Sequence record: DRR378314_1695
Strand: one strand, 5' to 3'
Length of the DNA stretch: 64,000 nt
In this document: positions 3,417-63,106 of the stretch, piece by piece
How positions within the stretch are numbered: position 1 is the first letter of the stretch
Layout: each line of letters starts with the position of its first letter
Translations under genes and position numbers: made by a program
The notes under the pieces: generated by a model
What the model was told of the DNA's origin: nothing
The model's input: only the letters and a program-made list of their open reading frames with translations
The model's database searches: none

Positions 3417-3426
3417 TTTCAGAGAG

Positions 3427-5208: not shown

Positions 5209-5244
5209 GTATAACTTTTTGAGTTACTATAATTAGTTTAAATT

Positions 5245-5282
5245 TGGGATGCCCCGTTGTAAAAACGGGCATCCCATTTTTA
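5245..5282 (+). terminator. Intrinsic terminator after susD
   Basis: TGGGATGCCC(C)GTT pairs with AACGGGCATCCCA, followed by a T run. Confidence 0.75.
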
Positions 5283-5412
5283 ATTATACTGAATGTTTAC
5301 TATTTAGTTTTGTCACTTAATCTTATAAATAGATTCTATTTATGAAAATAACTCATATGTGCCCAACTATTTTGACTTTAATATTAACATCCAAATAAGC
5401 TATTCTCAATCC

Positions 5413-6807
5413 ATGAAACCCAATTTCCATATTTTAATCTATCTATTCTCATTTGCATTATTCTCACAAAAAAGCCATGATAAGACCAACGCAACAGATG
5501 ATAGACCCAACTTTGTTTTTATTGTTGCCGATGACCTTGGCTATGGGGATTTAGGTTTTACCGGAAGTACACAAATAAAAACCCCTAACATAGATAAACT
5601 GGCTCAAACGGGGATTTTTTGTTCCCAGGGCTACGTTTCCTCTGCTGTTTGTAGTCCGTCAAGAGCTGGTTTTATCACTGGAATCAATCAGGTAGAGTTT
5701 GGACATGACAACAATCTAGCTCACTCCCAACCAGGATTTGACCCCCAATTCCTTGGTTTGCCCATAGGACAGCAGACCATAGCCGATTATTTAAAACCTT
5801 TGGGCTACATAAGTGGCATTATTGGGAAATGGCATTTGGGTTATGAGGATCAATTTCATCCCCTAAATAGAGGTTTCGATGAATTTTGGGGATATCGTGG
5901 TGGCGGACACGATTACTTCACTTCCAATCCGGAAGCAAAGGGATACATGGCCCCCATTGAATGCAATTACAAAACCCCACAGCCTATCACCTATATCACA
6001 GACGACAAGGGTGATGAATGTGTCGATTTTATAAAACGTCATAAAAAAGAGCCGTTCCTTCTTTTTGCCTCCTTTAATGCCCCACACACACCTATGCAGG
6101 CTACCAAAGCCGATTTGGCATTATACGGCCATATAAAGGATAGTAAAAGACGGACGTACGCGGCAATGGTACATAGGCTTGACATTAATGTGGGTAGAAT
6201 TATAGGTGCTTTAAAAGAATATAGTTTGGACAAAAATACTCTTGTCGTTTTTATAAGCGACAATGGGGGACCTATTGATAACGGTTCCATCAACTCCCCG
6301 TACAACGGTAAAAAAGGCACCTTATTGGAAGGCGGGGTACATGTTCCATTTATATTAAATTGGCCCAAAACCCTGCCCTCTGGAGAAACCTACTCTCACA
6401 TGGTTTCATCGCTTGACATTGTCCCAACCTTTTTGGCTTTTGCAGGTGGAAATGTAAAAGAATACACTTTTAGCGGTACCAATCTAATGCCTTATCTTAT
6501 GAAAGGTAGCAAGCAAATACCCCATGACAATCTCATGTGGCGCTTTACCATAAGTGCAGCCATAAGGGAAGGGGACTATAAATTGATCCGACTTCCAGAT
6601 CGATTGCCACTTTTGTTTCACCTTCCTTCAGATATTTCTGAGCAGCATAATATAGCCCTTGACAACTTGGATATCACGCGAGACCTCTTAGAAAAATTAG
6701 GAAAGTGGGATGTTTCCCTCCCCCATCCCCTATTTTTGGAAGGAGCAGAATGGAAAAAACAACAGCTTTACCAATACAACGTTAATTATCCTTTAATACA
6801 ACCATAG
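5413..6807 (+). CDS. Formylglycine-dependent (S1) sulfatase
   Basis: PNFVFIVADDLGYGD, CSPSRAGFITG (CxPxR), GKWHLG, SDNGG; start moved to ATG 5413, which gives a signal peptide. Confidence 0.92.
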   Translation: MKPNFHILIYLFSFALFSQKSHDKTNATDDRPNFVFIVADDLGYGDLGFTGSTQIKTPNIDKLAQTGIFCSQGYVSSAVCSPSRAGFITGINQVEFGHDNNLAHSQPGFDPQFLGLPIGQQTIADYLKPLGYISGIIGKWHLGYEDQFHPLNRGFDEFWGYRGGGHDYFTSNPEAKGYMAPIECNYKTPQPITYITDDKGDECVDFIKRHKKEPFLLFASFNAPHTPMQATKADLALYGHIKDSKRRTYAAMVHRLDINVGRIIGALKEYSLDKNTLVVFISDNGGPIDNGSINSPYNGKKGTLLEGGVHVPFILNWPKTLPSGETYSHMVSSLDIVPTFLAFAGGNVKEYTFSGTNLMPYLMKGSKQIPHDNLMWRFTISAAIREGDYKLIRLPDRLPLLFHLPSDISEQHNIALDNLDITRDLLEKLGKWDVSLPHPLFLEGAEWKKQQLYQYNVNYPLIQP

Positions 6808-6822
6808 TATAAATCTAGATAT

Positions 6823-9441
6823 ATGAATAGAAGAAAATATATAAAGACCATAGCACTGGGAACCCTATTGCCCAGTTTTTCCGCTTCGGCATTTCCCTTT
6901 GGGACCATAAGCCAAGAAAAATTACTTGAAGACATACAATTTAAAAGTAATTGGCACAACTGGCCCGATATGAAATGGGTAGGTCCGGAATACTGGGGAA
7001 ACCGACTCCAGGATTGGCGCCTAAAAGATGGCATGGCCGTTTGTAATATAAGTGCAGGAAATAGAAACCTGCAATTATTAACGGTTCAAAAAACAGATTC
7101 CATAACCCCATTGGAAGTTAGTGTGGATATTACCCTATTGAACAAGAGTATTGCCAATACCGATGAGGGATGCCTAGGTATGCAATTGGGATGTAATGGT
7201 CCTTTTGATGATTACCGATCGGCGGCTGTCTTTGGCAAAGGGTTGGACATTGGCCTTAACCCCAACGGAAAACTTCAGGTAAGTGGACAGCTCTTTGATA
7301 CCGGCCTAAATAAAATACCTGAAACCTTTCGTTTGGAAGTGCATTTAGAGCCTTACAATGATAAATACCGATTGAAGGTTGTTGTTCTGGAGCCGATAAC
7401 AAACACCTTGATCCATACCCAAGAAGATATGTATGTCGATGGTAAAAACCTAGTAGGGAATTTTGCCCTACTGGCCGATATAAAAACAGACAAGAGCCAT
7501 GCCTCCCAACCTCTGGCCGGCTATTCCAACTGGAATATAACTGCAGATAATCTTATTTCAAACAAAGACCAATTATACGGCCCCATTTGCTTTGCCCAAT
7601 ACACCCTTCACGATAAAAAGTTAAAACTCACCGCACAATTAGCGCCAATAGAAGAAATTGAAGGCAATTCCGTTCAGCTCCAATTCAAGGAACAGGGAGT
7701 ATGGAAAACCACAACCAATACCCAGTTGGAACATATAGGTAGGGCGGTAAACTTCGTAGTTGAAAATTGGAACGCCAATTCAGATATTCCTTACCGAATA
7801 TTGGTGGAAATCCCATTAAAAAATGAAATCCACCAATACACCTATGAAGGTACTATAGCCCAAGAGCCATTAAATAAAGAATCCGTATCGGCTGCGGTTT
7901 TTAGCTGTAATTTCCACTATGGTTTCCCTGATAACGACGTTCATGAAAATGTAGCTAAATTAAATCCGGACATCATTCTTTTCCTTGGGGATCAGTTTTA
8001 CGAAGGTACTGGTGGATTTGGGGCAGAACGAAGTGGTGACCTGGATGACCTATGTCTGGATTATCTCCGAAAGTGGATGATGTTCGGTTGGTCTTACCGC
8101 GAACTCTTTAGACATAAACCCTGCGCCATAATCCCGGATGACCATGATGTCTATCACGGTAATGTATGGGGCGAGAGCGGAAAAAAGGCCGATACCAGTG
8201 AAGGCCATGGCATGTTGGCCCAAGATTCCGGAGGCTACAAAATGCCTGCGGAATGGGTAAACATGGTGCAATTTACCCAAACCAGTCATTTACCCGACCC
8301 CTTCGACCCTAGCCCGGTTAAACAAAATATCGGTGTCTACTACACGCACTGGAACTACGGGGGCATTAGTTTTGCCATCCTAGAGGATCGAAAATTCAAA
8401 TCCGCCCCCAAGCATGTTCTACCGCCCGAAGCCCAGGTAAGGAACGGATGGATACAAAATAAAGATTTCGACATAAAACAATACTGGGATCTAGATGCCA
8501 CACTTTTGGGGCAGCGGCAACACGATTTTATAGATCATTGGACCCAGGATTGGAATAATGGGGCCGAAATAAAAGTGGTGCTATCGCAGACCAATTTTGC
8601 CACTGTGGCCACCTTGCCCAAAACAGCTTTAAATGATGACGTGGTTCCCTCCTTACCTATTCCCAAAAAAGGAGAATACGTACTCGGTGATGTCCCTACC
8701 GTGGACATGGATTCCAATGGCTGGCCAGCAAACAAAAGGGATAAGGCCGTTGAGGCTATCAGAAAATGCTATGCATTTCATATTGCCGGCGACCAACATT
8801 TGGGAAGTTTTATCCAATATGGCACTGATGAGCACGGAGACAGCGGTTACGCCTTTGCAGGTCCTGCCCTGAACAATATTTGGCCCAGAAGGTTCTGGCC
8901 AGAAGTAAATAGTGACTCCCATACCTATGATGACCCCGCTTATGTAGGGAACCATGTGGACGGATTTGGCAATAAACTATCGGTACATGCTGTGGGCAAT
9001 CCTTTCGATACCGGGATTGAGCCGGCCATTATACATAATAGGGCAACCGGTTATGGCCTGGTAACCTTCAACAAAAAAGACAGGACCATAACCACGGCCT
9101 GTTGGCCCAGATATGCCGACCCTAGCAGCGGTACAATTGAACAATTTCCAGGGTGGCCCATCACCATTAAACAAGAAGACAATTATGGTAAAAAGGCTGT
9201 AGCATGGTTGCCTACTATAAAGGTTGCCAACGTGAGCAAACCTGTTATTTCAGTTTTCGATAATAATAATCAGCTAGTTTATTCCATTCGTATGGCAGCC
9301 AACACCTTTGCCCCCAAAGTATTCGCTAAAGAAAAATATACCATTGTAATCCAAGATGTGGAAAACAATAGAAAAAAGACACTTAAGAATATTAGGGCCA
9401 AAACCGTTAACAATCGAATATTGGAAATTAACCTTGATTAA
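6823..9441 (+). CDS. Tat-exported PhoD-like metallophosphoesterase with large N-terminal extension
   Basis: NRRKYIK twin-arginine signal; FSCN, LGDQFY, PDDHDV, DSNGWP and AGDQH match the PhoD motif order. Confidence 0.7.
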   Translation: MNRRKYIKTIALGTLLPSFSASAFPFGTISQEKLLEDIQFKSNWHNWPDMKWVGPEYWGNRLQDWRLKDGMAVCNISAGNRNLQLLTVQKTDSITPLEVSVDITLLNKSIANTDEGCLGMQLGCNGPFDDYRSAAVFGKGLDIGLNPNGKLQVSGQLFDTGLNKIPETFRLEVHLEPYNDKYRLKVVVLEPITNTLIHTQEDMYVDGKNLVGNFALLADIKTDKSHASQPLAGYSNWNITADNLISNKDQLYGPICFAQYTLHDKKLKLTAQLAPIEEIEGNSVQLQFKEQGVWKTTTNTQLEHIGRAVNFVVENWNANSDIPYRILVEIPLKNEIHQYTYEGTIAQEPLNKESVSAAVFSCNFHYGFPDNDVHENVAKLNPDIILFLGDQFYEGTGGFGAERSGDLDDLCLDYLRKWMMFGWSYRELFRHKPCAIIPDDHDVYHGNVWGESGKKADTSEGHGMLAQDSGGYKMPAEWVNMVQFTQTSHLPDPFDPSPVKQNIGVYYTHWNYGGISFAILEDRKFKSAPKHVLPPEAQVRNGWIQNKDFDIKQYWDLDATLLGQRQHDFIDHWTQDWNNGAEIKVVLSQTNFATVATLPKTALNDDVVPSLPIPKKGEYVLGDVPTVDMDSNGWPANKRDKAVEAIRKCYAFHIAGDQHLGSFIQYGTDEHGDSGYAFAGPALNNIWPRRFWPEVNSDSHTYDDPAYVGNHVDGFGNKLSVHAVGNPFDTGIEPAIIHNRATGYGLVTFNKKDRTITTACWPRYADPSSGTIEQFPGWPITIKQEDNYGKKAVAWLPTIKVANVSKPVISVFDNNNQLVYSIRMAANTFAPKVFAKEKYTIVIQDVENNRKKTLKNIRAKTVNNRILEINLD

Positions 9442-21945: not shown

Positions 21946-21988
21946 GCAAATTATCCCAACTTAAGGGCTTCTACAATGACCTAAGTCA
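21946..21988 (-). promoter_or_regulatory. Crp/Fnr-type box plus -7 element
   Basis: AA-TGACCTAAGTCA-TT at 21977-21988; TAATTTGC on the minus strand 23 nt away. Confidence 0.75.
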
Positions 21989-27761: not shown

Positions 27762-28622
27762 CTAGAAAAATAGGGTTTTATGGTTATGTTCATTAAAGCT
27801 CATCAATATTACCTCACCGTAATCCTCCATTTTTTTGACTAGATCCCTATGGAACCATTTTTTTAGAAATCCTTTCTTTTCCCTTTCCAGCATCACTACC
27901 ATATCTGCATTTACTACCCCAAGATAAATTCTCAGGGTGTCAAATACATCTTCAGAAAACAATAGTTCGAACTCGATATCCGGATAATTTACCTTGGATT
28001 TCAGCATGTCCTTGAACCACTCCATTAATAAGTCTCCCGCATATTCCTCCTGGGTAGAAATATGTACTACCTTAATCTTTGCCTTTAAAGGCCTGGCAAT
28101 TTCCGAAAGTTTTTGAATGGCGTGTATATCTTCCTCTTCAAAATCTGTGGCATAGACCATGGTATCCAAATTTCTGCGCAATACATCATGGGGAACTGCA
28201 ATTACGGGACAAGGTGCCTTCTCTATGAGCTTCTTTGTGGTACTGCCCAAGATCATTTCCTCAAGCCCGCTTGCTCCTTTGGTACCTACCACTATTAGTT
28301 GGGCATGATAATCTTCTGCCTTTGATATAATTCCTTTGATAACAGAACTGTTCAGTACAGGCTCCAATTGTATTTTGGGATTATCCCACTTGCTTCCAAG
28401 GTGTTCCGTGCAGAATTTCTCCAGCTGGGCACGGTGGATTTTAACCGGATTTCCATCAAGTATCGGCCGCTCATCCAGTCCTTCCACACCCAATACGGTA
28501 GGAAAATTAAATGTGTAGTTAATAACCAGTCGCATACCCAAGGCCTGACTTAAATTATAGGCAAACTGCAAAGCAGTGACCGAGTTTTTGGAATAATCCG
28601 TGGCATAAAGCAATGTTTTCAT
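27762..28622 (-). CDS. Universal stress protein (tandem USP domains)
   Basis: LLYATDYS, LIVVGTKG, GSTT, second domain MVYATDF. Confidence 0.92.
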   Translation of the reverse strand: MKTLLYATDYSKNSVTALQFAYNLSQALGMRLVINYTFNFPTVLGVEGLDERPILDGNPVKIHRAQLEKFCTEHLGSKWDNPKIQLEPVLNSSVIKGIISKAEDYHAQLIVVGTKGASGLEEMILGSTTKKLIEKAPCPVIAVPHDVLRRNLDTMVYATDFEEEDIHAIQKLSEIARPLKAKIKVVHISTQEEYAGDLLMEWFKDMLKSKVNYPDIEFELLFSEDVFDTLRIYLGVVNADMVVMLEREKKGFLKKWFHRDLVKKMEDYGEVILMSFNEHNHKTLFF

Positions 28623-39072: not shown

Positions 39073-40140
39073 TTAAAAATCCGCTACCTCCCTAAGCCCC
39101 TTTTCATTTAAAATAATGATCCTTCTTCCATGATCGGTGGCGATCAGGCCTTCGTTCTTAAAATCCGTTAAGGTGCGGATAGCGGTTTCCGTTGCAGTAC
39201 CGATCATACCAGCGAAATCCTCCCTCGGTATTCCTATTCCCCCATTGGGTTTGTCCTGTATTACTTGTTTATCATAAAGTTCCAAAAGGGCCTTTGCAGC
39301 CCTTTGCCTTACCGAGGCAAATGCCATATCCACCAATTGTTCCTGCAGATGCATAAGATTATTCGAAATCATTCCAATAAATTTCTGTGAAACTACAGAG
39401 TTGCCATAAATTAATTTGGTAAAATCCTTCCTAGGTATGGCGCACATTTCGGCATCTTCCAACACAGTTGCATTTTCAACATAAACTTTATTGGAATTCA
39501 ATAGGGAAAGTTGCCCAACAAAATCCCCAGGGCCAAATATTCCTGTTACAAATTCCTTTCCGGATTCCGTGCTTTTATAGGTCTTAACACTGCCTTGTTC
39601 AATGAAATACAAAGAATTTGCGTTATCACCTTCCCAGAAAATTATATCCTTTTTATTGTATTTCTTTAGGGGGTAATCCTTGGAAAGACTCTTCATATCA
39701 ACGTATTGGGAGGCCTCGTCCAGGAATTTACTTAGGCCTTCCATGTTTTTGGCAATCTCCTTTTTAAGAAAGTCGCTCTTTCGTAATCGGGAGGAAATAG
39801 CTTCCAGCAATTCCTTTTCCTCAAATGGCTTGGTGAGATAATCGTCCGCCCCCAAATTCATTCCCAGTCTCACCTCTGCCCTATCGGTTTTTGCCGTCAA
39901 AAATATAAAGGGTATGCTAGCGGTTGTACTGTTTTTGCCCAATATTTCCAATACCCCATATCCGTCCAGTTCAGGCATCATTATATCGCATATGATTATG
40001 TCTGGCCTAAATTTTTCCGCAAGTTCTACCCCAATTTTTCCATTCTCGGCGGTAGCTACCTCGTAATTGGCCAATTCCAATATGTCTGCTGTATTTTCCC
40101 TTACATCCTTGTTATCTTCAATTAATAGAATCCTTTTCAT
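39073..40140 (-). CDS. Response regulator, REC plus cNMP-binding-like plus Crp/Fnr HTH
   Basis: LLIED, CDIMMP (phospho-Asp), FLTA, TKPF; beta-roll FIEQGSVK...GDFVG; HTH REDFAGMIGTATETAIRTL. Confidence 0.92.
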   Translation of the reverse strand: MKRILLIEDNKDVRENTADILELANYEVATAENGKIGVELAEKFRPDIIICDIMMPELDGYGVLEILGKNSTTASIPFIFLTAKTDRAEVRLGMNLGADDYLTKPFEEKELLEAISSRLRKSDFLKKEIAKNMEGLSKFLDEASQYVDMKSLSKDYPLKKYNKKDIIFWEGDNANSLYFIEQGSVKTYKSTESGKEFVTGIFGPGDFVGQLSLLNSNKVYVENATVLEDAEMCAIPRKDFTKLIYGNSVVSQKFIGMISNNLMHLQEQLVDMAFASVRQRAAKALLELYDKQVIQDKPNGGIGIPREDFAGMIGTATETAIRTLTDFKNEGLIATDHGRRIIILNEKGLREVADF

Positions 40141-42871
40141 ATTCGTTTATATTTATGGGCAGTTTTAGACTGAAGGTGCTTCCTTTCCCCAATTTACTTT
40201 TAAACCCTACAGTTCCGCTTAGAAGCCCCGTATACTGTTTTACTATATTAAGACCAAGTCCGGTCCCTTGGAAATTGGTGGCATTTTCCGCACGGTAAAA
40301 TCGCTCGAACAACTTTTTCTGATTTGCCTTAGGGATGCCGATTCCTTGATCCTTAACATGGATAAATAGCTCTTTATCATTAGCATCAACTTCCAATCCA
40401 ATAATTTGTCCTTCCATGGAATACTTAATGGCATTAGAAAGTAGATTAATAATAATATGGTTCAACAATTTGGGGTCAAGACAAACCGATATAGAGGGTT
40501 GGGAATAGTTTAAAACAATGTCCTGACCCTCTTTTTTGTTTGGTTCCATCTCATCGACCAACATTTTTAAGAATTGTATCAACTCAAAAAACTGTGGTTT
40601 CACAGATACCTTACCCTCTTCCAACTTGCTTAAGGATAGAAAATCGTTAAGAATAACAACAAGATCCCTCACATTGGTCCTAATCCTGGAGACATGCTTC
40701 ATCCTCCTATCCTCCTTACCTGGCTCATTCTGTTTTCCTATCAGTATAGCCGAAGAAAGAATAGCACTCAAAGGTGTGCGGAATTCATGGGATGCTATCG
40801 TAATAAAACGGGATTTTAACTCATTTAGTTCCTTTTCCACCATTATTGTCCTTTCAAGTTTATGCTGTACCTCTTTCTGCTCGGTAACATTGTTATAAAC
40901 GAACAAGGCCCACATTATTTTCTTTTCATCAGAATAGAGCGGTGTAGAATTAACAGCATAGCATTGATCGTGAAAATCTACTTCAAAAGAAATATTGCCC
41001 CCCCTCAGAGTTTTTCGAATATCCGATTTTATTTTTTTGATCTGTATTTTTGAAAAAACAGGGATATCATCTATTGGAATTCCTTCAAAATCCGACTTTT
41101 TAATGTTGATTCGGTCCATTTCCTCCCCTTCCACATAAACCAATTCATAATCGGAATTAAATACCATGATGACCCCATTGGGAAAATTATGTGCAATAGC
41201 AGTAAACAAGGCCCTACTGAGATTTGCCTTCCTTTGAGCTCTTTGGGTCTCGATCATTTGATCTTCCAGATTTAAATTGGTCGATACCAGTTTTTCTACC
41301 GTAGTTTGAACTTCCCTAGTCCGTTCTTCAACTTTGTCTTCCAATACATGGGCATATTCCTCCAGTTTTCTCTTGGCATCCTGAATTTCGGTAACATCGT
41401 TCAGGACCCCAATGAAATGAGTCAGTTTCTGATCTTGATCATATAGGGGCGTAATAAACAAATCGTTCCAAAAAAGAATGCCGTCCTTACTGTAATTCCG
41501 AATCAATACCCGGCAGGAACTACCGTGGTCAATGGCTTTGGACATAAAGGCAATTTCGGGCTGGTTACGATCGCCGTTCTGCAAGAATCTGCAATTTCTC
41601 CCCAGAACTTCATTGGCCCCATATCCGGTAATTCGGGTAAAGGCCTTATTAGAATATATAATGGGAAGATCGGGATGCTGGGCATCCACAATAATAATAC
41701 CGTTGCCTACGGCTTCCAAGGCCCTGTTTCTAATTTTTAAGGTTTCTTGGGTCAACTTGGTTTCCGTAATATCCAGTCCAGAACTTACGACCGCTATAAT
41801 TTCATTGTTTCCATTCCTCAAGGCAGCATTGCTCCATTGAATTAGGTGCTCTTGCCCTCCTTTGGCAACAATAGGGTTTTCATGAAAGTTGGGCAGATCT
41901 AATTTATCTTCAAAAATAGATTCAAAAAGTTGGATCAATTGGTTTTGCTTCCTTTTAGGTATAAATTCCTTAAACCAGTTTTTATTCAAAATAGCATCTT
42001 GTTCAATTCCCAATATTTCACTGGTCCTTTTATTGACAAGTTGAACAGTATGGTCCTTATTGATCACTAGAAACATGGAAGGCGAAGTGTCCATATATTG
42101 GCGGAGCAATTTTTTTTCCATCACTAGGGCGTGTTCTGTAGTCTTCAACTCTGTATAATCCTGCATAAAGCCTTCCCGTCTATAAGGAATATCATTTTCA
42201 TCCATAATACAGGAACCGTGCTCCCATATCCATTTTATTTCCTTTTTTGAGGTAATTATCCTATACCGAAGCTGGTACGATCCTTTTTCCATTACGGCCC
42301 TGTCAAGTTCAGACTCAACCTGTGGCAAATCCTCTGGGTGAATTAAATTTCCCCAATTAAGTTTAGAGTTACCATAAAACTGATCAGGGGCATATCCACT
42401 AATAGTTTTGGAAGCCTCGCTAATGAATTCCATGGACCATGGCTTGGCAATACTACAACTGTATACAATTCCGGCAACATTGGTGACCAAAGTTCTGAAC
42501 TTCCTGTCGCTTTCAAACACCGGGTTATCCGCTCGCTTGCAGTAGATCACTTTTAGGCTTTGGCCTTTTAGTACGGTTGGTACGATCCTAATATCGATAG
42601 GAAATTTAACCCCGTTCTTTTCCCGACCATAAAACTGATTGGGCCCTACTACAATCTCATTCATTTCCGCCGCAAGGGCATTAATCTTCCAGTCAGGAAT
42701 AATCAAATGGATATCCTGCTGTAGCAACTCACCCTCAACATAACCGAACATTTGTTCTGCCGACTTGTTGGCGGTGAGAACAAATCCATTTTGGTCTACC
42801 ACAATAAGTCCGGCTAAGGAAGATTCAAAAATGGATTGAAAAAGATCGCTATTTGTTATTTTTTCATTCAT
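40118..42871 (-). CDS. Multi-PAS sensor histidine kinase containing a LOV domain
   Basis: Several PAS domains; GRNCRFLQ at 41579-41602; H-box SHEFRTPL, NLLSNAIKYS, DQGIG, GTGLGL; start ATG 42871. Confidence 0.92.
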   Translation of the reverse strand: MNEKITNSDLFQSIFESSLAGLIVVDQNGFVLTANKSAEQMFGYVEGELLQQDIHLIIPDWKINALAAEMNEIVVGPNQFYGREKNGVKFPIDIRIVPTVLKGQSLKVIYCKRADNPVFESDRKFRTLVTNVAGIVYSCSIAKPWSMEFISEASKTISGYAPDQFYGNSKLNWGNLIHPEDLPQVESELDRAVMEKGSYQLRYRIITSKKEIKWIWEHGSCIMDENDIPYRREGFMQDYTELKTTEHALVMEKKLLRQYMDTSPSMFLVINKDHTVQLVNKRTSEILGIEQDAILNKNWFKEFIPKRKQNQLIQLFESIFEDKLDLPNFHENPIVAKGGQEHLIQWSNAALRNGNNEIIAVVSSGLDITETKLTQETLKIRNRALEAVGNGIIIVDAQHPDLPIIYSNKAFTRITGYGANEVLGRNCRFLQNGDRNQPEIAFMSKAIDHGSSCRVLIRNYSKDGILFWNDLFITPLYDQDQKLTHFIGVLNDVTEIQDAKRKLEEYAHVLEDKVEERTREVQTTVEKLVSTNLNLEDQMIETQRAQRKANLSRALFTAIAHNFPNGVIMVFNSDYELVYVEGEEMDRINIKKSDFEGIPIDDIPVFSKIQIKKIKSDIRKTLRGGNISFEVDFHDQCYAVNSTPLYSDEKKIMWALFVYNNVTEQKEVQHKLERTIMVEKELNELKSRFITIASHEFRTPLSAILSSAILIGKQNEPGKEDRRMKHVSRIRTNVRDLVVILNDFLSLSKLEEGKVSVKPQFFELIQFLKMLVDEMEPNKKEGQDIVLNYSQPSISVCLDPKLLNHIIINLLSNAIKYSMEGQIIGLEVDANDKELFIHVKDQGIGIPKANQKKLFERFYRAENATNFQGTGLGLNIVKQYTGLLSGTVGFKSKLGKGSTFSLKLPININEYEKDSIN

Positions 42872-42996
42872 TGCCCTTTTACTGATTTTCACTTTATGGT
42901 CTTGGCCGCACCAACAAGGACGGACCGCTAAGGAGTTTTGTTGAATACACACTATCCATGGAGGCCTGTATTCCAATAATTTAGTACTCAGTTACA

Positions 42997-43039
42997 CAAA
43001 TGTATTGTTCACTATAGCCGAAAGAAATGATATCCGTCA
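42997..43039 (-). promoter_or_regulatory. Crp/Fnr-type box plus -7 element driving the LOV kinase-regulator operon
   Basis: TGATATCCGTCA at 43028-43039; TACATTTG on the minus strand (43004-42997). Confidence 0.85.
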
Positions 43040-43065
43040 TAAGCTGTATCTGGATCGTAAAAACC

Positions 43066-43108
43066 TGATAACGGTCATATGTGCATTTCTTTATATGGAA
43101 TAATTTTG
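43066..43108 (+). promoter_or_regulatory. Crp/Fnr-type box plus -7 element (patatin)
   Basis: TGATAACGGTCA at 43066-43077; TAATTTTG at 43101-43108. Confidence 0.85.
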
Positions 43109-43132
43109 ATTCAAATTCTAAATAAAGGGATT

Positions 43133-43972
43133 ATGACAACAGGCTTGGTCCTTTCTGGCGGTGGTATACGGGGTGTTGCCCATATAGGGGCCATAAAGGC
43201 ATTGGAGGAATACGGTATTTATCCTACCCATATTGCTGGCACCAGCGCAGGGGCCATTGTTGGAGCCTTGTACGCTGCCGGCTGTAATTGGGAAGAAATG
43301 TTGGATTTTTTTAAGTCCACAGAAATCTTCAGTCTTACCAATTATGCTATGGGAAAACCTGGCTTTTTGGATACAGAAAAATTCCATGATCAATTAAAGG
43401 CCTACATATCCCATGATACTTTCGAATCTTTGGGGAAGCAACTTTATGTAACGGCTACCAACCTACTTGATGGCACTTTGAATGTTTTTAGTGAAGGTGA
43501 ACTAATAAAACCCGTATTAGCTTCGGCAGCTGTTCCTGGACTATTTGCCCCTGTAGAGATTAATAAAGGATATTACGTAGACGGCGGCACTTTGAATAAT
43601 TTTCCTGTAGACCTTATAAAAAAGTATTGCGATCAGATTGTGGGGGTCTATGTAAATCCGTTCAACCATGTAAGCATCAAGGAACTAAACCATGTGAACA
43701 AGGTTTTGGAAAGGGCCTATCATGTTATGGTGGCCAATGAAACCACCAAGAAATTTAAAGACTGTGATATATTGATTCGTCCGGCCAACATGGATCGTTT
43801 TGGTATGTTTACCTTAAAAAATTTAGATATTATTCTAGATTTGGGTTATAATGCAACTATGAACGCACTGAAGAACAGTGACCTTGCCTCAGAATTGTTA
43901 TCAGCAGCAGAATTGGAAGCTATGAATGGTTTTTCCATGGATCCTTCCATTATTGGCAATCCACAGGATTAA
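43133..43972 (+). CDS. Patatin-like phospholipase (RssA type)
   Basis: GGGIRG, GTSAG nucleophile elbow, DGG; start ATG 43133. Confidence 0.92.
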   Translation: MTTGLVLSGGGIRGVAHIGAIKALEEYGIYPTHIAGTSAGAIVGALYAAGCNWEEMLDFFKSTEIFSLTNYAMGKPGFLDTEKFHDQLKAYISHDTFESLGKQLYVTATNLLDGTLNVFSEGELIKPVLASAAVPGLFAPVEINKGYYVDGGTLNNFPVDLIKKYCDQIVGVYVNPFNHVSIKELNHVNKVLERAYHVMVANETTKKFKDCDILIRPANMDRFGMFTLKNLDIILDLGYNATMNALKNSDLASELLSAAELEAMNGFSMDPSIIGNPQD

Positions 43973-54543: not shown

Positions 54544-55368
54544 ATGAAACATATATTGGTACCTGTTGATTTTTCCGAGCACTCGGCCTATGCGCTGGAG
54601 GCTGCGGCTGGTATAGCAAAACAGCAGAACGCGGATATTACCATAATACATATGCTGGGAATTTCCGAGGCAGTAATTGCCGAAGAGGAATTATTGGAGT
54701 ACGAAGAAGCCAAATACTTCATGGGGCTTGCAAAGAAAAAATTTAAGCCCTTTCTGGACAAACCTTATTTAAAGGGCATCACTATTCATAAAATAGTGCA
54801 GAATTATAAGGTATTCAGTGAGCTCAACAATGTTGCCAAGGAACAAAATATTGATTTGATCGTAATGGGATCACATGGTAGTACTGGTTTCAACGAGATT
54901 TTTATAGGCTCCAATACCGAAAAGGTGGTACGTAATTCCGATGTCCCGGTTTTGGTTATAAAGGAGCAAAAATCAAACTTCACCATAAAGAATATCCTTT
55001 TCGCCTGTAGTTTTTCGGAGGACATGGTTATGGCCTATAAAAATGTTAAGCTTATGGCTCAAAAATTTTCGGCCAAATTAAAATTGGTATACATCAATAC
55101 CCCATATCAGGATTTTTTGAGTTCACAGGAAGCTGACGATCGCATGGCCAAATTCATGTCCAAGGCCGGGGATACCCAAGCTAAAGTTGAAATTTATAAT
55201 GACCGTAGTGTGGAAAATGGGATACTTAATTTTAGTAAGACCGAAAAATTTGACCTTCTCGCACTTCCAACACATGGAAGAAAAGGCCTTTCTCATTTCT
55301 TATTGGGCAGTATTGGTGAAGATATCGCCAACCACGCAAGATTGCCGGTAATGACATTTAAGATCTGA
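54544..55368 (+). CDS. Universal stress protein (tandem USP domains)
   Basis: ILVPVDFS, IVMGSHG, GSNT; second domain THGRKG..GS. Confidence 0.95.
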   Translation: MKHILVPVDFSEHSAYALEAAAGIAKQQNADITIIHMLGISEAVIAEEELLEYEEAKYFMGLAKKKFKPFLDKPYLKGITIHKIVQNYKVFSELNNVAKEQNIDLIVMGSHGSTGFNEIFIGSNTEKVVRNSDVPVLVIKEQKSNFTIKNILFACSFSEDMVMAYKNVKLMAQKFSAKLKLVYINTPYQDFLSSQEADDRMAKFMSKAGDTQAKVEIYNDRSVENGILNFSKTEKFDLLALPTHGRKGLSHFLLGSIGEDIANHARLPVMTFKI

Positions 55369-55898: not shown

Positions 55899-57410
55899 AT
55901 GCAGGCCTTTCAAAAAAACAGTGAAATATTCAACCTTCTTTCGGAAGGGGTATCCGAAGGAATTATAGTTGTCAATACCCAACAGCTTATAGTAGCCACT
56001 AATTCCTCGGCCGGGAGAATGTTTGGTTACAGTAAGGGAGAGCTCCTTGGAAAACCCTTGGACACCCTAATACCTAGAAGGTACCACGGGCATCACGGTC
56101 ACCATGTGGAGGACTTTATTGATAAAAGTGAACGTCGGCAAATGGGCCGGGGCAGGGATTTACATGGGGTAAGAAAAAACGGTGAGGAATTTCCTGTTGA
56201 GGCGGGTCTAAATCCGTTTAAGCTTTATGACGAAACCTATGTCATGGCCCTAGTAATTGATATTACCGAACGCAAGGTCAAAGAAAAAGAACTAAGCCAT
56301 TGGGCAAGGATATTTGATGAATCCCTCAATGAAATCTACGTTTTCGACGCCATCTCAAAATATTTTGTAAACGTAAACAAAGAGGCCCAGCGAAATATGG
56401 GCTATAACCTGGAAGAATTTAAGACATTGAAGCCATTGGACATTAAGCCCCATATGGACTCCCCACAATTCCAATTGCTAATAGAACCCTTGCTTAACGG
56501 CTCAAGGGACAAGGTAAAGTTTGAAACCGACCATCAAAGAAAGGACGGGTCTATCTATCCCGTAGAAGTACATTTGCAACTATCTACATTTGGTGAAAAA
56601 GATGTTATTGTAGCTATAATACTTGATATTACAGAGAGAAGGAATTATACCGAAAAGCTGGAAAAAAAGGTCCAAGAGCGTACCAAACAACTTACGGAAG
56701 CCTTGGCCAAGGAGAAGGAATTGAACGAGCTAAAAACACGCTTCCTTTCCTTGGTTTCCCATGAATTCAAGACCCCTTTGAGCAGTATACTTACCTCTAT
56801 TACCTTATTGTCCAAGTATACCGAAAGTCACCAACAGGAAAAGAGGGATAAGCACGTTGAAACCATAAAGAACAAAGTACGCTATCTGGATACTATTTTG
56901 ACCGATTTTCTTTCGGTGGAGCGTTTGGATTCTGGAAAGGTAAATTACAAGTTAGAAACTTTCCCTTTAAGCAAAATTGTAAACGAGGTAGTCTATGGTG
57001 CCAACATGCTCCTTAAGGCGGGCCAAACCATTAAATATCCGGAGAATATCGATGATATTTTCATCAGATTTGACGAAAAAACCTTGGAACTGGCCTTGTC
57101 CAACCTAATACATAATGCCATTAAATATTCCCCAGAAGATACAACTATAAGTCTAGCGGTGAGCAATGGTAAGGACACCGTACTAATAGATGTGATCGAT
57201 CGTGGCATTGGCATACCTGCACAGGACCAAAAACATATTTTTAATCGTTATTTTAGGGCGGAAAATGCATTGTTGAACCAAGGTACGGGTATTGGACTTA
57301 ACATTGCTAAACAGCATTTGGAAAATCTTGGCGCCACTATTGAATTTACCAGTGAAGAAAACAAAGGATCTATATTTACTATAGTTATCCCTTTAGAAAA
57401 CATAAATTGA
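55899..57410 (+). CDS. FixL-like heme-PAS sensor histidine kinase
   Basis: PAS-A LIPRRYHGHH...MGRGRDLHGVRKNGEEFPVE, second PAS, H-box SHEFKTPL, NAIKYS, GTGIGL. Confidence 0.9.
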   Translation: MQAFQKNSEIFNLLSEGVSEGIIVVNTQQLIVATNSSAGRMFGYSKGELLGKPLDTLIPRRYHGHHGHHVEDFIDKSERRQMGRGRDLHGVRKNGEEFPVEAGLNPFKLYDETYVMALVIDITERKVKEKELSHWARIFDESLNEIYVFDAISKYFVNVNKEAQRNMGYNLEEFKTLKPLDIKPHMDSPQFQLLIEPLLNGSRDKVKFETDHQRKDGSIYPVEVHLQLSTFGEKDVIVAIILDITERRNYTEKLEKKVQERTKQLTEALAKEKELNELKTRFLSLVSHEFKTPLSSILTSITLLSKYTESHQQEKRDKHVETIKNKVRYLDTILTDFLSVERLDSGKVNYKLETFPLSKIVNEVVYGANMLLKAGQTIKYPENIDDIFIRFDEKTLELALSNLIHNAIKYSPEDTTISLAVSNGKDTVLIDVIDRGIGIPAQDQKHIFNRYFRAENALLNQGTGIGLNIAKQHLENLGATIEFTSEENKGSIFTIVIPLENIN

Positions 57411-57417
57411 AAGAGCA

Positions 57418-58470
57418 ATGAAGACAATTCTATTAATCGAGGACGATAGGGCCTTGCGTGAAAATACCGAAGAGCTTTTGGAGCTTTCAGGTTATTCCAT
57501 GATTACGGCCCCAAACGGAAAAATTGGTATTCAAATGGCCAAGGAAAAATTGCCGGATATTATTGTCTGCGATATTATGATGCCAGAGGTGGATGGTTAT
57601 GGCGTTCTAAAGGACTTGTCTTCAGACGAAAGCACCAAACATATTCCCTTTATATTCCTATCTGCCAAAACCGAACATAAAGAGATACGACGTGGAATGG
57701 ATCTGGGCGCCGATGATTACCTTACCAAGCCTTTTGAAGAGGAAGACCTCATAAACGCCATAGAAAGTAGATTGGCCAAAGTGGAACTATTGGGGCGTAT
57801 GGCAAAGGAAGGGACGCTGGATCCGGCAGTTTCGGAAGATCAGATACGCACCTTGAACGAGTTGAAGAATTTTTTTGACGACAATGGAGAACCCACTAGT
57901 TTTCCCCAAGGCAGTACCATCTACCAAGAAGGGACCTATTCTCATAAAATATACCTTATCCTAAAAGGGGTCGTAAAATGCCATACTATGGACGAGGACG
58001 GAAAAGAATTGATCACTTCCCTGTTTAGGGCAGATGACTTTTTAGGATTTACCTCCTTTATAGACAATATTCCTTATCAGGAATCGGCAACCGCCATCGA
58101 GGATGTGGAACTGGCCGGGATATCCAAGGAAAATTTAAAGCAGGTGTTGGAAAAGAACCACAATATCTCCTTGGAACTCATGGAACTGCTTACTGGAAAT
58201 ATTAAGGACATAAAACAGCAATTGTTGCAAATGGCCTATAGTTCCGTGCGAAAGAAAACCGCCCAAACCTTGTTGCAGTTCGCAGAAATAATGAACAAAA
58301 AAACCGAGGATCCCATTAAAATTTCCCGAAATGATCTGGCCAGTGTAGCCGGTATTGCTACCGAAAGCCTTATCCGCACGCTGTCCGGATTCAAAAAGGA
58401 AGGACTAATAGACATTGAAGGCAGAAATATCCGTATCAAGGAATTAAAGGCCCTGCAATACATCAATTAA
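57418..58470 (+). CDS. Response regulator, REC plus cNMP-binding-like plus Crp/Fnr HTH
   Basis: LLIEDD, CDIMMP, TKPF; HTH RNDLASVAGIATESLIRTL; paralog of 39073..40140. Confidence 0.92.
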   Translation: MKTILLIEDDRALRENTEELLELSGYSMITAPNGKIGIQMAKEKLPDIIVCDIMMPEVDGYGVLKDLSSDESTKHIPFIFLSAKTEHKEIRRGMDLGADDYLTKPFEEEDLINAIESRLAKVELLGRMAKEGTLDPAVSEDQIRTLNELKNFFDDNGEPTSFPQGSTIYQEGTYSHKIYLILKGVVKCHTMDEDGKELITSLFRADDFLGFTSFIDNIPYQESATAIEDVELAGISKENLKQVLEKNHNISLELMELLTGNIKDIKQQLLQMAYSSVRKKTAQTLLQFAEIMNKKTEDPIKISRNDLASVAGIATESLIRTLSGFKKEGLIDIEGRNIRIKELKALQYIN

Positions 58471-58571: not shown

Positions 58572-59408
58572 ATGAAGAATATACTGTTCCCCACCGATTT
58601 TTCCGAAAATTCATGGTACGCAATTGAATATGCCTTAAAGCTGTTCAAAGATGCTCCCTGTAATTTTTATGTACTCCATGTTGATGCTTTAAGTAGATCC
58701 GGTGTGGACAGCAATTCCTTTGTTATGCCATTCAAAAGTATTAATGTGGCCCTTAAGGATAATCTAGAGGATACCTTTGCCCGTATTAAGACCATTACCA
58801 CCAACAAGGAACATAATTTTATCGCCCTCCATGAATATGGAAATCTCATAGATATTGTTCGAAAGACCATATCGGACAAAAAGATAAATCTAATTGTCAT
58901 GGGGACCAAAGGGGCTTCGGGCTTAAAAGAAACCATTTTGGGCAGCAATACCGGGAATGTCATGACCAAAGTACCCTGTAATCTATTGGTGATTCCAGAA
59001 AAAGCCGTGCAGTGCATCCCTCAAGAAATTGCCTTTCCTACCGATTACAATAATTTCTATTCCCATTCTATTTTGGAGGCGATTTCAAAAATGCTCCGTC
59101 TCACCAAAGCCAACCTAAGTGTTGTTAATGTCTCGAAGCCCAGTGTACAATTAAATGAAGCCCAAAATCAGAATATGGTCTATTTACAGGACTATCTGCT
59201 GGAACTTTATGAAAAATCGCATAGTATCCACAACCTAAAACATGAAAAGGCCAAAAGTGCCATTGAGCAATTTGTTGTCAGTGAGAAAATAGATATGGTG
59301 ATCATGGTGGCCAAGAACCTAAATTTTCTGCAACAGCTGCTGTTCGACACCACCATTAAAAAAATTAGTTTTCAGACGAGGATTCCTTTACTTGTCCTCC
59401 ACGAATAA
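58572..59408 (+). CDS. Universal stress protein
   Basis: ILFPTDFS, IVMGTKG, GSNT, AFPTDY. Confidence 0.94.
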   Translation: MKNILFPTDFSENSWYAIEYALKLFKDAPCNFYVLHVDALSRSGVDSNSFVMPFKSINVALKDNLEDTFARIKTITTNKEHNFIALHEYGNLIDIVRKTISDKKINLIVMGTKGASGLKETILGSNTGNVMTKVPCNLLVIPEKAVQCIPQEIAFPTDYNNFYSHSILEAISKMLRLTKANLSVVNVSKPSVQLNEAQNQNMVYLQDYLLELYEKSHSIHNLKHEKAKSAIEQFVVSEKIDMVIMVAKNLNFLQQLLFDTTIKKISFQTRIPLLVLHE

Positions 59409-59438
59409 ACGCACCCCCATGGGTTGATATAGGGCTAC

Positions 59439-59481
59439 TGATAAATGTCATAGGTTTTATATGTCGCTACCAATAACTTTG
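59439..59481 (+). promoter_or_regulatory. Crp/Fnr-type box plus -7 element (usp array)
   Basis: TGATAAATGTCA at 59439-59450; TAACTTTG at 59474-59481. Confidence 0.87.
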
Positions 59482-59503
59482 ATAGGTATACAAAAGAAAA
59501 CCT

Positions 59504-60349
59504 ATGAAAGCAGTTTTGATTCCTACCGATTTTTCCCACAGTGCCATGCATGCCATAGATTATGCACTGAATCTTTACAAATGTGAACGCACCAACTTCT
59601 ACTTTTTACATGCTTATGCAGATGAGGTTTATGGTCCGTTCAAGACTAATGGGGAAACCTCAGTTGAAGAACAAAAAGAAATTGTAAAGAACAATACGGA
59701 TAAATCCTTAAAGGATCTCATCCAAAAACTAACTGCTAGGGAGCACAATCCAAAACACACCTATGAAGCGCTGTCTGCATTCGACACCTTGGTAGATGCA
59801 GTTAACGACTTTGCCAACCAAATAAATGTTGACCTGGTCATAATGGGTACAAAAGGACAGACAGCGGACAAAAAAATCACTTTCGGTAGCCATACGGTAC
59901 AGGTTTTCAAATACGTACAGTGCCCGGTACTAGCAGTTCCTTTGGACTATAAGTACCATCAGCCAAAAAAGATATTGTTTCCCACAGATTATATGCTGCC
60001 TTATAAACGTCGGGAATTGAAGTTGCTGAATACCTTGGCAGCCGAATTTAAATCGGAGATCCATTGCCTTTACATATCAGACTTTGAAGATTTAAGCAAC
60101 AGGCAGATAGACAACCAACGCTTCCTAAAAGAATCTTTGGCAGACGCCTTCCTGTTTTTTAAAATATGCCCCACTAAGAATAAGGCCGAGGCCATAATGG
60201 ATTACATCAAAAAGAATAACATAAACCTTTTGGTCATGGTAAACTCGCGCCATTCATTCTTGGAAGATATGCTTTACAGATCAACGGTAGACGAAATTGG
60301 GCTACGCTTAAAGGTACCTTTTTTGGTGATGCAGAATCTACCTAGATAA
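59504..60349 (+). CDS. Universal stress protein
   Basis: VLIPTDFS, VIMGTKG, GSHT. Confidence 0.94.
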   Translation: MKAVLIPTDFSHSAMHAIDYALNLYKCERTNFYFLHAYADEVYGPFKTNGETSVEEQKEIVKNNTDKSLKDLIQKLTAREHNPKHTYEALSAFDTLVDAVNDFANQINVDLVIMGTKGQTADKKITFGSHTVQVFKYVQCPVLAVPLDYKYHQPKKILFPTDYMLPYKRRELKLLNTLAAEFKSEIHCLYISDFEDLSNRQIDNQRFLKESLADAFLFFKICPTKNKAEAIMDYIKKNNINLLVMVNSRHSFLEDMLYRSTVDEIGLRLKVPFLVMQNLPR

Positions 60350-60366
60350 TTTAAAAAGATGTAAGG

Positions 60367-61230
60367 ATGAAAAAAATTTTGTTGCCCACCGACTTTTCCA
60401 CTAACGCTTGGAACGCCATCGTGTATACGGTGAATTATTTCCAAAATGAAAAGTGTCTTTTCTATATACTTCACACCTATACCCCTACTTTTTACAGGGT
60501 AGATTATATGATGGGAGGTCCGGTCAATAGTGCCATTCCCGACAAGGGTGTAGAGGTGGCCCAGGCAGGTTTGGAAAAGACGCTAAGGGATTTAAGAAAG
60601 AACCTGCATAACAAAAACCATCAATTCAAAACCATTTCATCTTTTAATATTCTAACCGATGAAATTGAAGAGGTTACCGCAAGGGAGGGAATAGACATCA
60701 TTGCCATGGGAACCCAGGGAGCTACAGGGGCCAAGGAAATCTTTTTGGGAACCAACACGGTCCATGTTATCAAAAAAGCCAAGATTCCGGTATTGGCCAT
60801 TCCCAATGGTTATGCCTTTAAGGAAATTGATTCCATAGTCTTCCCTACAGATTACACCACGCCTTATGACCCAGAGGCATTAGGTTTTCTGGCAGAAATG
60901 TCCAAGTTGCAAAAGGCTAGAATAATAGTACTGAATGTTAAGGAGGATTTTGTCCTTAACGAGAAACAAAATGCCCATAAAAAAGCCCTAGGCGCTTTCC
61001 TTCAGCCCATGGACCATAGCTTTGAGCAGGTCAAGGGCGAATTAATGCCCAATGCCATACATGAATATGTGGAAAAACATAGAATTGGGCTACTGGCCAT
61101 CATGAACCGCAAACATACATTTTTACATCGGCTGATCAATAAATCTACTATAGACTCCATTGGATATCATTCCAGGATACCCTTTGTAGCCATACCAGAA
61201 AGTTGGGAAGAACCCCTTAAAAAAACTTAA
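60367..61230 (+). CDS. Universal stress protein
   Basis: ILLPTDFS, IAMGTQG, GTNT. Confidence 0.94.
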   Translation: MKKILLPTDFSTNAWNAIVYTVNYFQNEKCLFYILHTYTPTFYRVDYMMGGPVNSAIPDKGVEVAQAGLEKTLRDLRKNLHNKNHQFKTISSFNILTDEIEEVTAREGIDIIAMGTQGATGAKEIFLGTNTVHVIKKAKIPVLAIPNGYAFKEIDSIVFPTDYTTPYDPEALGFLAEMSKLQKARIIVLNVKEDFVLNEKQNAHKKALGAFLQPMDHSFEQVKGELMPNAIHEYVEKHRIGLLAIMNRKHTFLHRLINKSTIDSIGYHSRIPFVAIPESWEEPLKKT

Positions 61231-62081
61231 TGATGAAAAATATATTGTTGCCGACAGATTTTTCCGATAATGCCTGGAATGCCATATTTACAGCATTAAA
61301 ACTCTATGCCGATGTGAAATGTACATTTCTCATTTTACATGCCTATGAGCCAAAGGCCTTGAACATGTTAGGGCAAAAAAATCAACAGAGATTAGGAATC
61401 ATTTACGACTCATTGGCACTGAATGCTGCTCAGGAATTGGAAAAAATATTGTCTTACCTAAGCGAAAACCACAACAACCCTAACCATAAATTTGAAACCA
61501 TATCAAAGTCCGATACTTTGGAAGGCGCAGTTAAGGAATTAGCCTCTACCAAGGATATAGACCTCGTTGTTATGGGAACTCAAGGTGCTACCGGAGCAAA
61601 GGAAATCTTTATGGGCAGCAATACGGTAAAAGTCCTAAAACAACTTAATAATATTTCCATTTTAGTGGTTCCCAAGGACTATAACTTCCAAAAGTTAAAG
61701 ACGCTGGTCTTCCCTACAGATTATACCAGGAAGTATGAAAAGTTTGAGCTATTGCCCATGACAGAACTTACAAAACTTTGGAACGCAACCATACAGGTGA
61801 TACATGTGGCAGTAGAATTTTTACTCAACGACGTCCAGGAAGCAAACCAAAAAATTTTGGAAGAGCGTTTAGCCGGTTATAACTATAGCCTACATGAACT
61901 TGGCTTCGATGGCAATATTGCACAAAGTGTTGAGCAGTATGTAGCTGAAACCAGGGCAGATCTATTGACCATGGTGCGGTACCATCATAACTTTTGGGAA
62001 AGAATTATAGATGAGCCCGTAATAAAAAAAATAGCCTTTCATTCCACGGTGCCGGTCTTGTTCCTACCCGAGCAGTCATAG
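61230..62081 (+). CDS. Universal stress protein
   Basis: ILLPTDFS, VVMGTQG, GSNT; TAATG stop/start overlap. Confidence 0.94.
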   Translation: MMKNILLPTDFSDNAWNAIFTALKLYADVKCTFLILHAYEPKALNMLGQKNQQRLGIIYDSLALNAAQELEKILSYLSENHNNPNHKFETISKSDTLEGAVKELASTKDIDLVVMGTQGATGAKEIFMGSNTVKVLKQLNNISILVVPKDYNFQKLKTLVFPTDYTRKYEKFELLPMTELTKLWNATIQVIHVAVEFLLNDVQEANQKILEERLAGYNYSLHELGFDGNIAQSVEQYVAETRADLLTMVRYHHNFWERIIDEPVIKKIAFHSTVPVLFLPEQS

Positions 62082-62245
62082 GAAGGGCAAATAAAAGCCG
62101 TTTAACTATAAAAAAGATGGTACATACATGATTCAGAAAATTATTATACCCTAAGGGTAATAACACTTTTAATCATTACAGCTTACACCCTCTTGAATGA
62201 AACTCTAAAGCTGCAGTGACCACTAAAAGCTATAAAAACAAACAA

Positions 62246-63106
62246 ATGAAAGCAAAACATATACTACTGCCCACGGACTTCTCGGCAAACGCGCGGAATG
62301 CCATAGACTACGCCATTTACCTTTTTGAAAAGGTAGATTGTGTATTTCATATTTTGCATGCCTTTGAAGTTGGGGCATCCAATTTGAGCAGTACCATGGG
62401 AAAGGCAAAGGACACTCGCCTATTTAGGGCAATAAAGGATGAATCCCAGAGAGACATGAAATCCCTAATAGACGAACTGGAATCCGCAAATAAAAATACT
62501 AAGCACTCTTTTAAGGGATTAAGTATCGCCGATTCCTTGGTAAATGCCATAGGAAGAACCACTATCGATAAAGGCATACAATATATTTTTATGGGAACCA
62601 AAGGTTCCTCCGCTCTGAAAGAGGTATTTATGGGCAGCAACACGGTAAGGATTATTCAGAAAATAGACTTCTGCCCTATCATTGCCGTTCCTGAAAATTA
62701 TGATTTTGATCTTCCTGACGAAATAGCCTTTGCCACAAATTTTGAACATATTTACAGTGAGGTAGAACTGGTACCGCTCATAGGATTGGCAAAATTATGG
62801 AACTCCAAAATCACCATCGTACATATTGATACGGGCAAGGAATTGCAACCCCATCAACAAACAGCCAAAGATACATTGCCCAAAAGGTTCTTTGGCCTAA
62901 ATCACGGTTTTGAAGAAATTAAAGGACATACTTCTATTTCTGGGGCCATAAATGGCTATACCCATGAAAATGAAAATATAGGAATGATTGCCATGGTAAA
63001 TTATTGGCACAGTTTCTTTGAGAAGTTAACCAAAGAAAATGTTATAAAGCGGGTAGCCTTCAATACGGAAGTACCTTTTTTAATATTTCCCCTGATAGAA
63101 CCCTAA
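62246..63106 (+). CDS. Universal stress protein
   Basis: ILLPTDFS, IFMGTKG, GSNT; start ATG 62246. Confidence 0.94.
   Translation: MKAKHILLPTDFSANARNAIDYAIYLFEKVDCVFHILHAFEVGASNLSSTMGKAKDTRLFRAIKDESQRDMKSLIDELESANKNTKHSFKGLSIADSLVNAIGRTTIDKGIQYIFMGTKGSSALKEVFMGSNTVRIIQKIDFCPIIAVPENYDFDLPDEIAFATNFEHIYSEVELVPLIGLAKLWNSKITIVHIDTGKELQPHQQTAKDTLPKRFFGLNHGFEEIKGHTSISGAINGYTHENENIGMIAMVNYWHSFFEKLTKENVIKRVAFNTEVPFLIFPLIEP

Follow-up and report, generated by a model that had tools for sequence, protein, structure and literature searches.

A natural glutamine-deficient LOV domain in a multi-PAS histidine kinase associated with a putative Crp/Fnr-type stress regulon in an Arenibacter-like marine flavobacterium

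We report a LOV domain lacking the active-site glutamine in a histidine kinase encoded on a 64,000-nucleotide stretch of DNA (sequence record DRR378314_1695; the whole stretch is referred to below as the window) from an Arenibacter-like marine flavobacterium. The kinase gene (40118-42871, minus strand) codes for a protein of 917 amino acids, and the core of its LOV domain (41384..41734, minus strand) spans approximately residues 380-496. The weight of the evidence favors a working, flavin-binding blue-light photosensor of the glutamine-deficient (LOV-deltaQ) type, which is fourth among the sensor modules of a cytoplasmic histidine kinase with several PAS domains and signals to a Crp-type regulator of an oxygen/stress regulon; we regard this reading as likely.

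The LOV domain and its active-site residues

A sequence-only reading of the window had proposed that this kinase contains a LOV domain in which the photoactive Cys and the two flavin-binding Asn residues are intact, and all the peptides that it quoted (PIIYSNKAFTRITGY, EVLGRNCRFLQ, MSKAI, NYSKDG, FWN and HFIGVLND) are encoded on the minus strand in the translation of 41300-41800. Sequence searches bore out this identification. A phmmer search with a 125-residue segment matched 140 distinct PDB sequences at E<=1e-5, all of them LOV proteins, with a best value of 3.1e-33; the Pfam PAS_9 model matched the LOV segment alone at 1.1e-21, and the NCBIfam YtvA-family model covered residues 381-509 at 4.5e-42. 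This similarity is far beyond chance.

The adduct-forming cysteine, Cys427, is encoded by TGC at 41593-41591 (minus strand, as are the codons that follow), within the sequence GRNCRFLQ that conforms to the GXNCRFLQ motif. The two flavin-contacting asparagines are encoded by AAT at 41497-41495 and AAC at 41467-41465, with strands between them (41465..41497); these residues, the Asn of RNY and the Asn of FWN, align with the flavin Asn residues of AsLOV2 in the corresponding row of a published alignment (PMC9098866). At the place of the active-site glutamine of the Ibeta strand the protein has Leu490, encoded by CTG at 41404-41402, one base from CAG, so that FIGVQ reads FIGVL exactly as had been noted from the sequence. 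Similarly, Ser444 of MSKAI (TCC, 41542-41540) occupies the place of the second arginine binding the phosphate of flavin mononucleotide (FMN), 17 residues after the Cys, and this earlier observation also stands: in all four ungapped PDB alignments displayed, Gln is found opposite Leu490 and Arg opposite Ser444. The AsLOV2 row of the published alignment agrees, with the Q of FIGVQ facing L, the R of KIRDAI facing S, and both Asn residues conserved.

The filter by which Dietler et al. (2022) recognized LOV-deltaQ receptors combines the presence of at least eight of nine conserved LOV residues (G, N, C, R, F, L, Q, N, N) with lack of an active-site Gln. The window domain possesses all nine, with Leu490 in lieu of the Gln corresponding to AsLOV2 Q513, and hence falls within this class. 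Lack of the Gln defines a subclass of LOV domains and does not exclude LOV function. According to that study (Nat Commun 13:2618, PMC9098866), the active-site Gln is dispensable in LOV receptors, and about 350 natural receptors are glutamine-deficient, mostly bearing Leu or Ile. Flavin binding and adduct formation persist when the Gln is exchanged for Leu in YF1, NmPAL and AsLOV2, with dark recovery slowed 10-fold in YF1 and approximately 22-fold in AsLOV2; signaling is retained at about half the amplitude in YF1 and AsLOV2 and above that of the wild type in NmPAL. A natural LOV-deltaQ cyclase of Mesorhizobium, which bears Met at this site, is regulated by blue light. These data back the statement of the sequence-only reading that Leu variants signal differently. 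The rarity that it implied was overstated, given that LOV domains naturally lacking the Gln form a class already described, of which one published member is but two residues away from the window domain (row 158 of the supplementary alignment of PMC9098866; WP_157730878.1, residues 378-499). The motif THFIGVLNDVT recurs in two further rows of that alignment, one of which (row 159, WP_085496934.1) resembles the orthologs from congeneric genomes discussed below. Receptors of this kind are known, and a near-identical LOV domain has already been catalogued in print.

The leucine itself was examined against independent sequences. The nearest genome (G001) encodes a kinase protein that is 100% identical, with CTC as the Leu codon, which is synonymous and two steps away from CAG. 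We compared contigs (not raw reads) of four public runs over 40900-41900: run X1, which may be where this DNA comes from, matches the window, with CTG at a depth of 32; runs X2 (a metagenome) and X14 (an isolate) have the third base as in CTC; and X17, represented by a 363-base contig from a metatranscriptome library, has CTG. The middle T of the codon is invariant in all four runs, three of which come from other samples or studies. The species displays a synonymous CTG/CTC polymorphism at Leu490, and Leu at the Ibeta site is a real, fixed and maintained natural change.

Alternation of glutamine and leucine within the genus

Orthologs of the kinase were recovered from 17 of 25 congeneric genomes (E<=1e-150), and the adduct Cys is present in all of them. 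The question of whether orthologs carry Gln or Leu at the Ibeta site received a divided answer: ten have Leu (CTG in nine, CTC in one) and seven have Gln (always CAG), and no other residue was seen at this site in the genus. A maximum-likelihood gene tree was built from 18 full-length proteins, namely the window protein together with 16 orthologs from the genus and one from outside it, leaving aside the split gene of G171 and the shorter L004. On this tree four Gln/Leu changes are needed, all four being forced by well-supported branches. A tree of the LOV-region DNA (393 columns), from which the Gln/Leu codon had been removed, likewise needs four changes, of which well-supported branches force at least three. 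The best tree uniting the 11 Leu rows was rejected, its log-likelihood being 58 lower (approximately unbiased (AU) test p 0.00017), with the grouping tested being defined by the trait but named after the first tree had been seen. Together, these trees indicate that the state switched at least three times within the genus and reject a single origin. Sister lineages discordant in state were recovered in the LOV-region DNA tree with the codon kept: L038 and L040 (Leu) with L041 (Gln; 97%), and L031 (Leu) with L034 and L042 (Gln; 95%).

The domain also appears to have moved between species. In the comparison of L002 with L035, identity at third codon positions is 78% outside the LOV domain and 51% inside it, and the nonsynonymous divergence (dN) is 0.050 outside and 0.191 inside. 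Within the domain these two are as distant as any pair, a mark of mosaic ancestry. This pair suggests that the LOV module has been exchanged between species by recombination. The ratio of dN to synonymous divergence (dS) in the LOV region ranges from 0.085 to 0.235 in seven Leu-Leu pairs and is 0.131 and 0.181 in two Gln-Gln pairs, as against a range of 0.097-0.218 in the remainder of the gene; no ratio could be obtained for three further pairs, one of them Leu-Leu, because dS was saturated. These values indicate that the LOV domain is under purifying selection whichever of the two residues is present.

All eight non-redundant orthologs of the Leu type use CTG, and the use of a single codon was observed in only three of 48 conserved-Leu columns. 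This uniformity hints at a recent or repeated origin from CAG and is not significant alone. We also considered residues that co-vary with the Leu, namely a Val near the start of the domain, a pocket residue of the Gbeta strand, a Phe of Hbeta and an Asp-Ala at the start of the linker; the association holds only inside the family of 917-residue orthologs, and these residues do not follow the Leu in other Leu-bearing families among the best 120 of 299 homologs. They look like a linked haplotype and not like demonstrated co-evolution.

Phosphate-contacting arginines and the wider homolog family

In the best 120 of the 299 homologs, each aligned pairwise to the window LOV domain, the adduct Cys is conserved in 118, the first flavin Asn in 118 and the second in 119. 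The Ibeta site is occupied by Gln in 96, Leu in 18, Ile in two, Met in two, and Ala and Ser in one each. The column of the second phosphate-binding Arg is much more variable, with Arg in 54, Ala in 35, Ser in 11, Lys in nine, Asp in four, Gly in two, and Thr, Leu, Val, Glu and Gln in one each; counting Lys as a conservative replacement, this Arg is missing in 57 of the 120. These tallies indicate that these flavobacterial kinases lost the second Arg earlier and on a much wider scale than Gln gave way to Leu at the Ibeta site; the loss does not track the Gln-to-Leu change. Two members of the family, L003:2623-2991 from another genus and the homolog P0032, have Gly at the place of the adduct Cys (NGRFLQ), with the Ibeta Gln and the remainder of the pocket retained; by their sequences these are natural Cys-less LOV domains.

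In the short LOV protein PpSB1-LOV the FMN phosphate is held by four arginines, R54, R61, R66 and R70, and mutation of R61 and R66 accelerates dark recovery 280-fold (PMC5314338). The window domain retains the first phosphate Arg (that of NCR) and has an extra loop Arg, in the motif GDR, that matches R61, with Ser444 at the second position.

Kinase architecture, operonic linkage and the palindrome-marked regulon

The listed open reading frame of the kinase (40118-42976, minus strand) begins at an upstream TTG at 42976. Since a length of 917 residues is shared by most of the closest homologs (P0001-P0011 among them), the start is most likely the ATG at 42871. The domain order by Pfam is PAS, PAS, PAS, LOV, a weakly PAS-like segment with a sub-threshold match to PAS_4 (E 0.01), HisKA and HATPase_c. 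The kinase core (40154..40816, minus strand), comprising HisKA with its H-box (4.8e-12; 46.2 bits against a cut-off of 26.9) and HATPase_c (3e-26; 92.5 bits against 26.4), is intact, both domains scoring above the Pfam cut-offs. Within the kinase gene, run X1 has a minority contig (depth 15 of 78) lacking one base of a T5 run at 41097-41101, which is probably an assembly bubble or a homopolymer error.

Directly downstream lies the gene for the cognate response regulator (39073..40140, minus strand), whose start overlaps the stop of the kinase by 23 bases and whose product combines by Pfam a REC domain, a cyclic nucleotide monophosphate (cNMP)-binding domain and a Crp-type helix-turn-helix (HTH) domain. 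This linkage is found in 18 of 19 ortholog loci; the one remaining locus stops at a contig edge. Despite the complete identity of the kinase proteins, the regulator shares only 96% identity with its counterpart in G001. Upstream, between the kinase operon and a divergent gene, lie two ATGAY-N4-RTCAT palindromes (43027..43078), of which that at 43027-43040 is exact and that at 43065-43078 has one mismatch. The pair is present at the same place in 18 of 19 ortholog loci, and a single site in the remaining one. The divergent gene (43079-43972, plus strand) codes for a patatin-like phospholipase and shares this two-palindrome control region with the LOV kinase.

Allowing up to one mismatch, the palindrome occurs 29 times in the window, against 9.5 +/- 3.4 in shuffled sequences (maximum of 21 in 100 shuffles). 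The ten exact sites are at 21976, 25245, 28776, 32675, 37402, 38045, 43027, 52053, 54213 and 63141, and at least eight of them are intergenic, ahead of genes for universal stress proteins (Usp), pfkB, pta, YtxH and others. The palindrome marks the promoters of Usp, pfkB, pta-ackA, YtxH, Hsp20/ATPase and both kinase operons. The genes so marked look like a Crp/Fnr-type regulon, which includes seven Usp genes, Hsp20, a P-type ATPase, a PEP-utilising enzyme, pfkB, glucokinase, pta-ackA, glycogen phosphorylase and a second kinase-regulator pair. The placement of the LOV kinase in a regulon by the sequence-only reading is thus sustained by a repeated palindrome with two sites upstream of the kinase. 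The seven Usp genes code for tandem-domain proteins and lie at 54544-55368 and 58572-63106 on the plus strand and at 27762-28622 on the minus strand, five of them in a row after the second kinase pair.

This second two-component pair (55899..58470, plus strand) consists of a PAS-PAS kinase and a REC-cNMP-Crp regulator paralogous to that of the LOV kinase. The N-terminal PAS domain of the kinase (55899-57410) is most like the haem PAS domains of FixL (E 4.3e-12) and DosP, and its His-rich stretch aligns with the haem-ligand region of FixL, with a His opposite the ligand His, which we take to be H200. From this similarity the kinase is a probable oxygen sensor, and the label 'hypoxia-type' that had been given to the regulon fits, inasmuch as its other kinase has such a haem PAS domain. 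The two regulators are 42% identical, and their HTH regions share the near-identical stretches ATETAIRTL and ATESLIRTL, presumably, by analogy with Crp/Fnr, the DNA-recognition helix. Because of this near-identity, both regulators could bind the same operator. The co-occurrence in one palindrome-marked Usp regulon of two kinases, one with a LOV domain and one with a FixL-like haem PAS, each accompanied by its own REC-Crp regulator, suggests an integration of light and oxygen signals in marine flavobacteria; a search of the literature returned no publication on such integration in these organisms. At the other end of the window, a SusC/SusD pair, a sulfatase and a PhoD-like phosphatase (252-9441, plus strand) form an ordinary polysaccharide-utilisation locus unrelated to the LOV kinase.

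Proposed mechanism and alternative explanations

We infer flavin binding, a photocycle and light sensing for the window domain. In the mechanism that we propose, blue light would lead to an adduct between Cys427 and flavin C4a together with protonation of flavin N5. Given Leu490 instead of Gln, this change would probably be relayed to the Ibeta strand via a transiently entering water, as has been proposed for the engineered Q-to-L variants. The signal could then pass through the C-terminal helical linker and the further PAS-like segment to the HisKA/HATPase core, the output of which, in whichever direction light drives it, would shift the phosphorylation of the co-transcribed REC-cNMP-Crp regulator. 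The regulator would in turn act on the ATGAY-N4-RTCAT operators of the Usp-rich stress regulon, beside the FixL-like oxygen-sensing kinase pair. By analogy with the engineered variants, Leu would slow dark recovery and thereby raise sensitivity to weak light, and it may lower the signal amplitude.

Several observations weigh against this proposal. Counting from the Cys (C53 in PpSB1-LOV) along the ungapped PDB alignments, the window domain keeps only the +1 and +8 (GDR) positions of the four-Arg cluster described for PpSB1-LOV, with Ile at +13 and Ser at +17. As the cluster is incomplete, flavin affinity or the type of cofactor could differ; with Ile and Ser at these two positions, the cofactor may be bound more loosely, or recovery may outpace what Leu alone would give. 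The further PAS-like segment parts the LOV domain from the kinase core, so that coupling between them is indirect. The X17 contig comes from an RNA library and does not prove transcription. AlphaFold2, run on 16 orthologous LOV segments, yielded a poor model (mean predicted local distance difference test (pLDDT) score of 56, with residues 1-55 below 50) that recovered only Falpha, Gbeta, Hbeta, Ibeta and Jalpha and adds nothing; sequence evidence already places the domain. Finally, no experiment on this protein or on any ortholog came to light, literature searches on Arenibacter together with LOV domains, and on WP_157730878.1, having retrieved nothing, and a search on flavobacterial LOV kinases was similarly empty.

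One alternative is that the domain is degenerate, having lost useful flavin photochemistry or signaling through the Gln-to-Leu change and the loss of the second Arg, and persists as a PAS module with no more than a structural or dimerising role. Two residues normally deemed important are indeed replaced, and, of the 115 LOV columns, the Gln/Leu column belongs to the 26 that changed at least four times on the tree, which could mean relaxed constraint there. However, the other flavin-contact residues are invariant or nearly so, both in the best 120 of the 299 homologs and in 16 orthologs; dN/dS of the LOV region is as low as that of the rest of the gene; the restriction to Gln or Leu in the genus is unlike a free site; and the engineered Q-to-L domains (PMC9098866) retain flavin and signaling. 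We accordingly consider such degeneration improbable.

A second alternative is that the flavin reports the redox state of the cell through its reduction and N5 protonation, light being irrelevant in the habitat. The content of the regulon, with its FixL-like haem kinase, Usp, Hsp20 and fermentation genes, would befit a response to oxygen stress, and the domains of L003 and P0032, with Gly for Cys in an otherwise preserved pocket, could only signal by flavin reduction. Against this, the retention of the adduct Cys in 118 of the best 120 homologs and in every congeneric ortholog argues for adduct photochemistry, and a purely redox-sensing role, too, has little probability in our assessment. The last alternative, that CTG arose through faulty sequencing or assembly and Gln is the actual residue, is refuted by the CTC codon of G001, the contigs of four runs free of any middle-base variant and the occurrence of CTG in nine other species, nothing having been found in its favor.

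Returning to the domain as a working blue-light sensor, a further and rather unlikely proposal, which we put forward tentatively, is that the Gln/Leu site is a recurrently flipped natural tuning switch, adaptive to the light regime of each species, as opposed to neutral drift at a dispensable residue. If true, flips between CAG and CTG and recombination of the LOV module would fix the dark-recovery time and, through it, the sensitivity to light, and a tuned photoreceptor and a FixL-like oxygen sensor would converge on one Crp/Fnr-type stress regulon. The 17 congeneric orthologs, with ten Leu to seven Gln and discordant sister pairs, constitute a natural experiment on the effect of this residue in native backgrounds, and the discordant pairs are suited to measuring its effects on photocycle kinetics and kinase output.

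Comparison with known systems

The window domain resembles the natural LOV-deltaQ set in possessing the nine filter residues without the active-site Gln, Leu being the predominant replacement in that set. It differs from the receptors of Dietler et al. in nothing of kind, though the natural receptor tested there, the Met-bearing Mesorhizobium cyclase, is other than this kinase family, and the excerpted text contains no discussion of Gln/Leu alternation among orthologs, of the missing second Arg or of the regulon. What is new here is modest: the repeated Gln/Leu switching and the apparent recombination of the LOV module within one genus, the loss of the second Arg across the family, and a regulon context that joins light and oxygen.

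The engineered variants YF1 Q123L, AsLOV2 Q513L (PDB 7pgz, 7ph0) and NmPAL Q347L present the identical change at the identical Ibeta position, and YF1 is likewise a LOV histidine kinase. In these, a single substitution was placed in a Gln-type background, whereas the Leu of the window protein occurs in a native sequence from which the second phosphate Arg is absent as well; moreover, the window LOV domain is not directly fused to the dimerisation and histidine phosphotransfer (DHp) helix. The best matches among solved structures are the short LOV proteins of Pseudomonas (the PpSB1-LOV family) and bacterial LOV histidine kinases (9vf7, 4r3a). They share with the window domain the GDR motif of the Ealpha-Falpha loop, the Arg of which (R61 in PpSB1-LOV) contacts the FMN phosphate; they have the Ibeta Gln and the full set of arginines, whereas the window protein has only those at +1 and +8. 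Lastly, the regulon recalls the FixL-FixJ/FixK cascades in the FixL/DosP-like haem PAS domain of its other kinase and in the Crp/Fnr/FixK-type HTH domains of its regulators, but here a single protein joins the receiver to the Crp-type effector, and a LOV kinase with its own paralogous regulator has been added.

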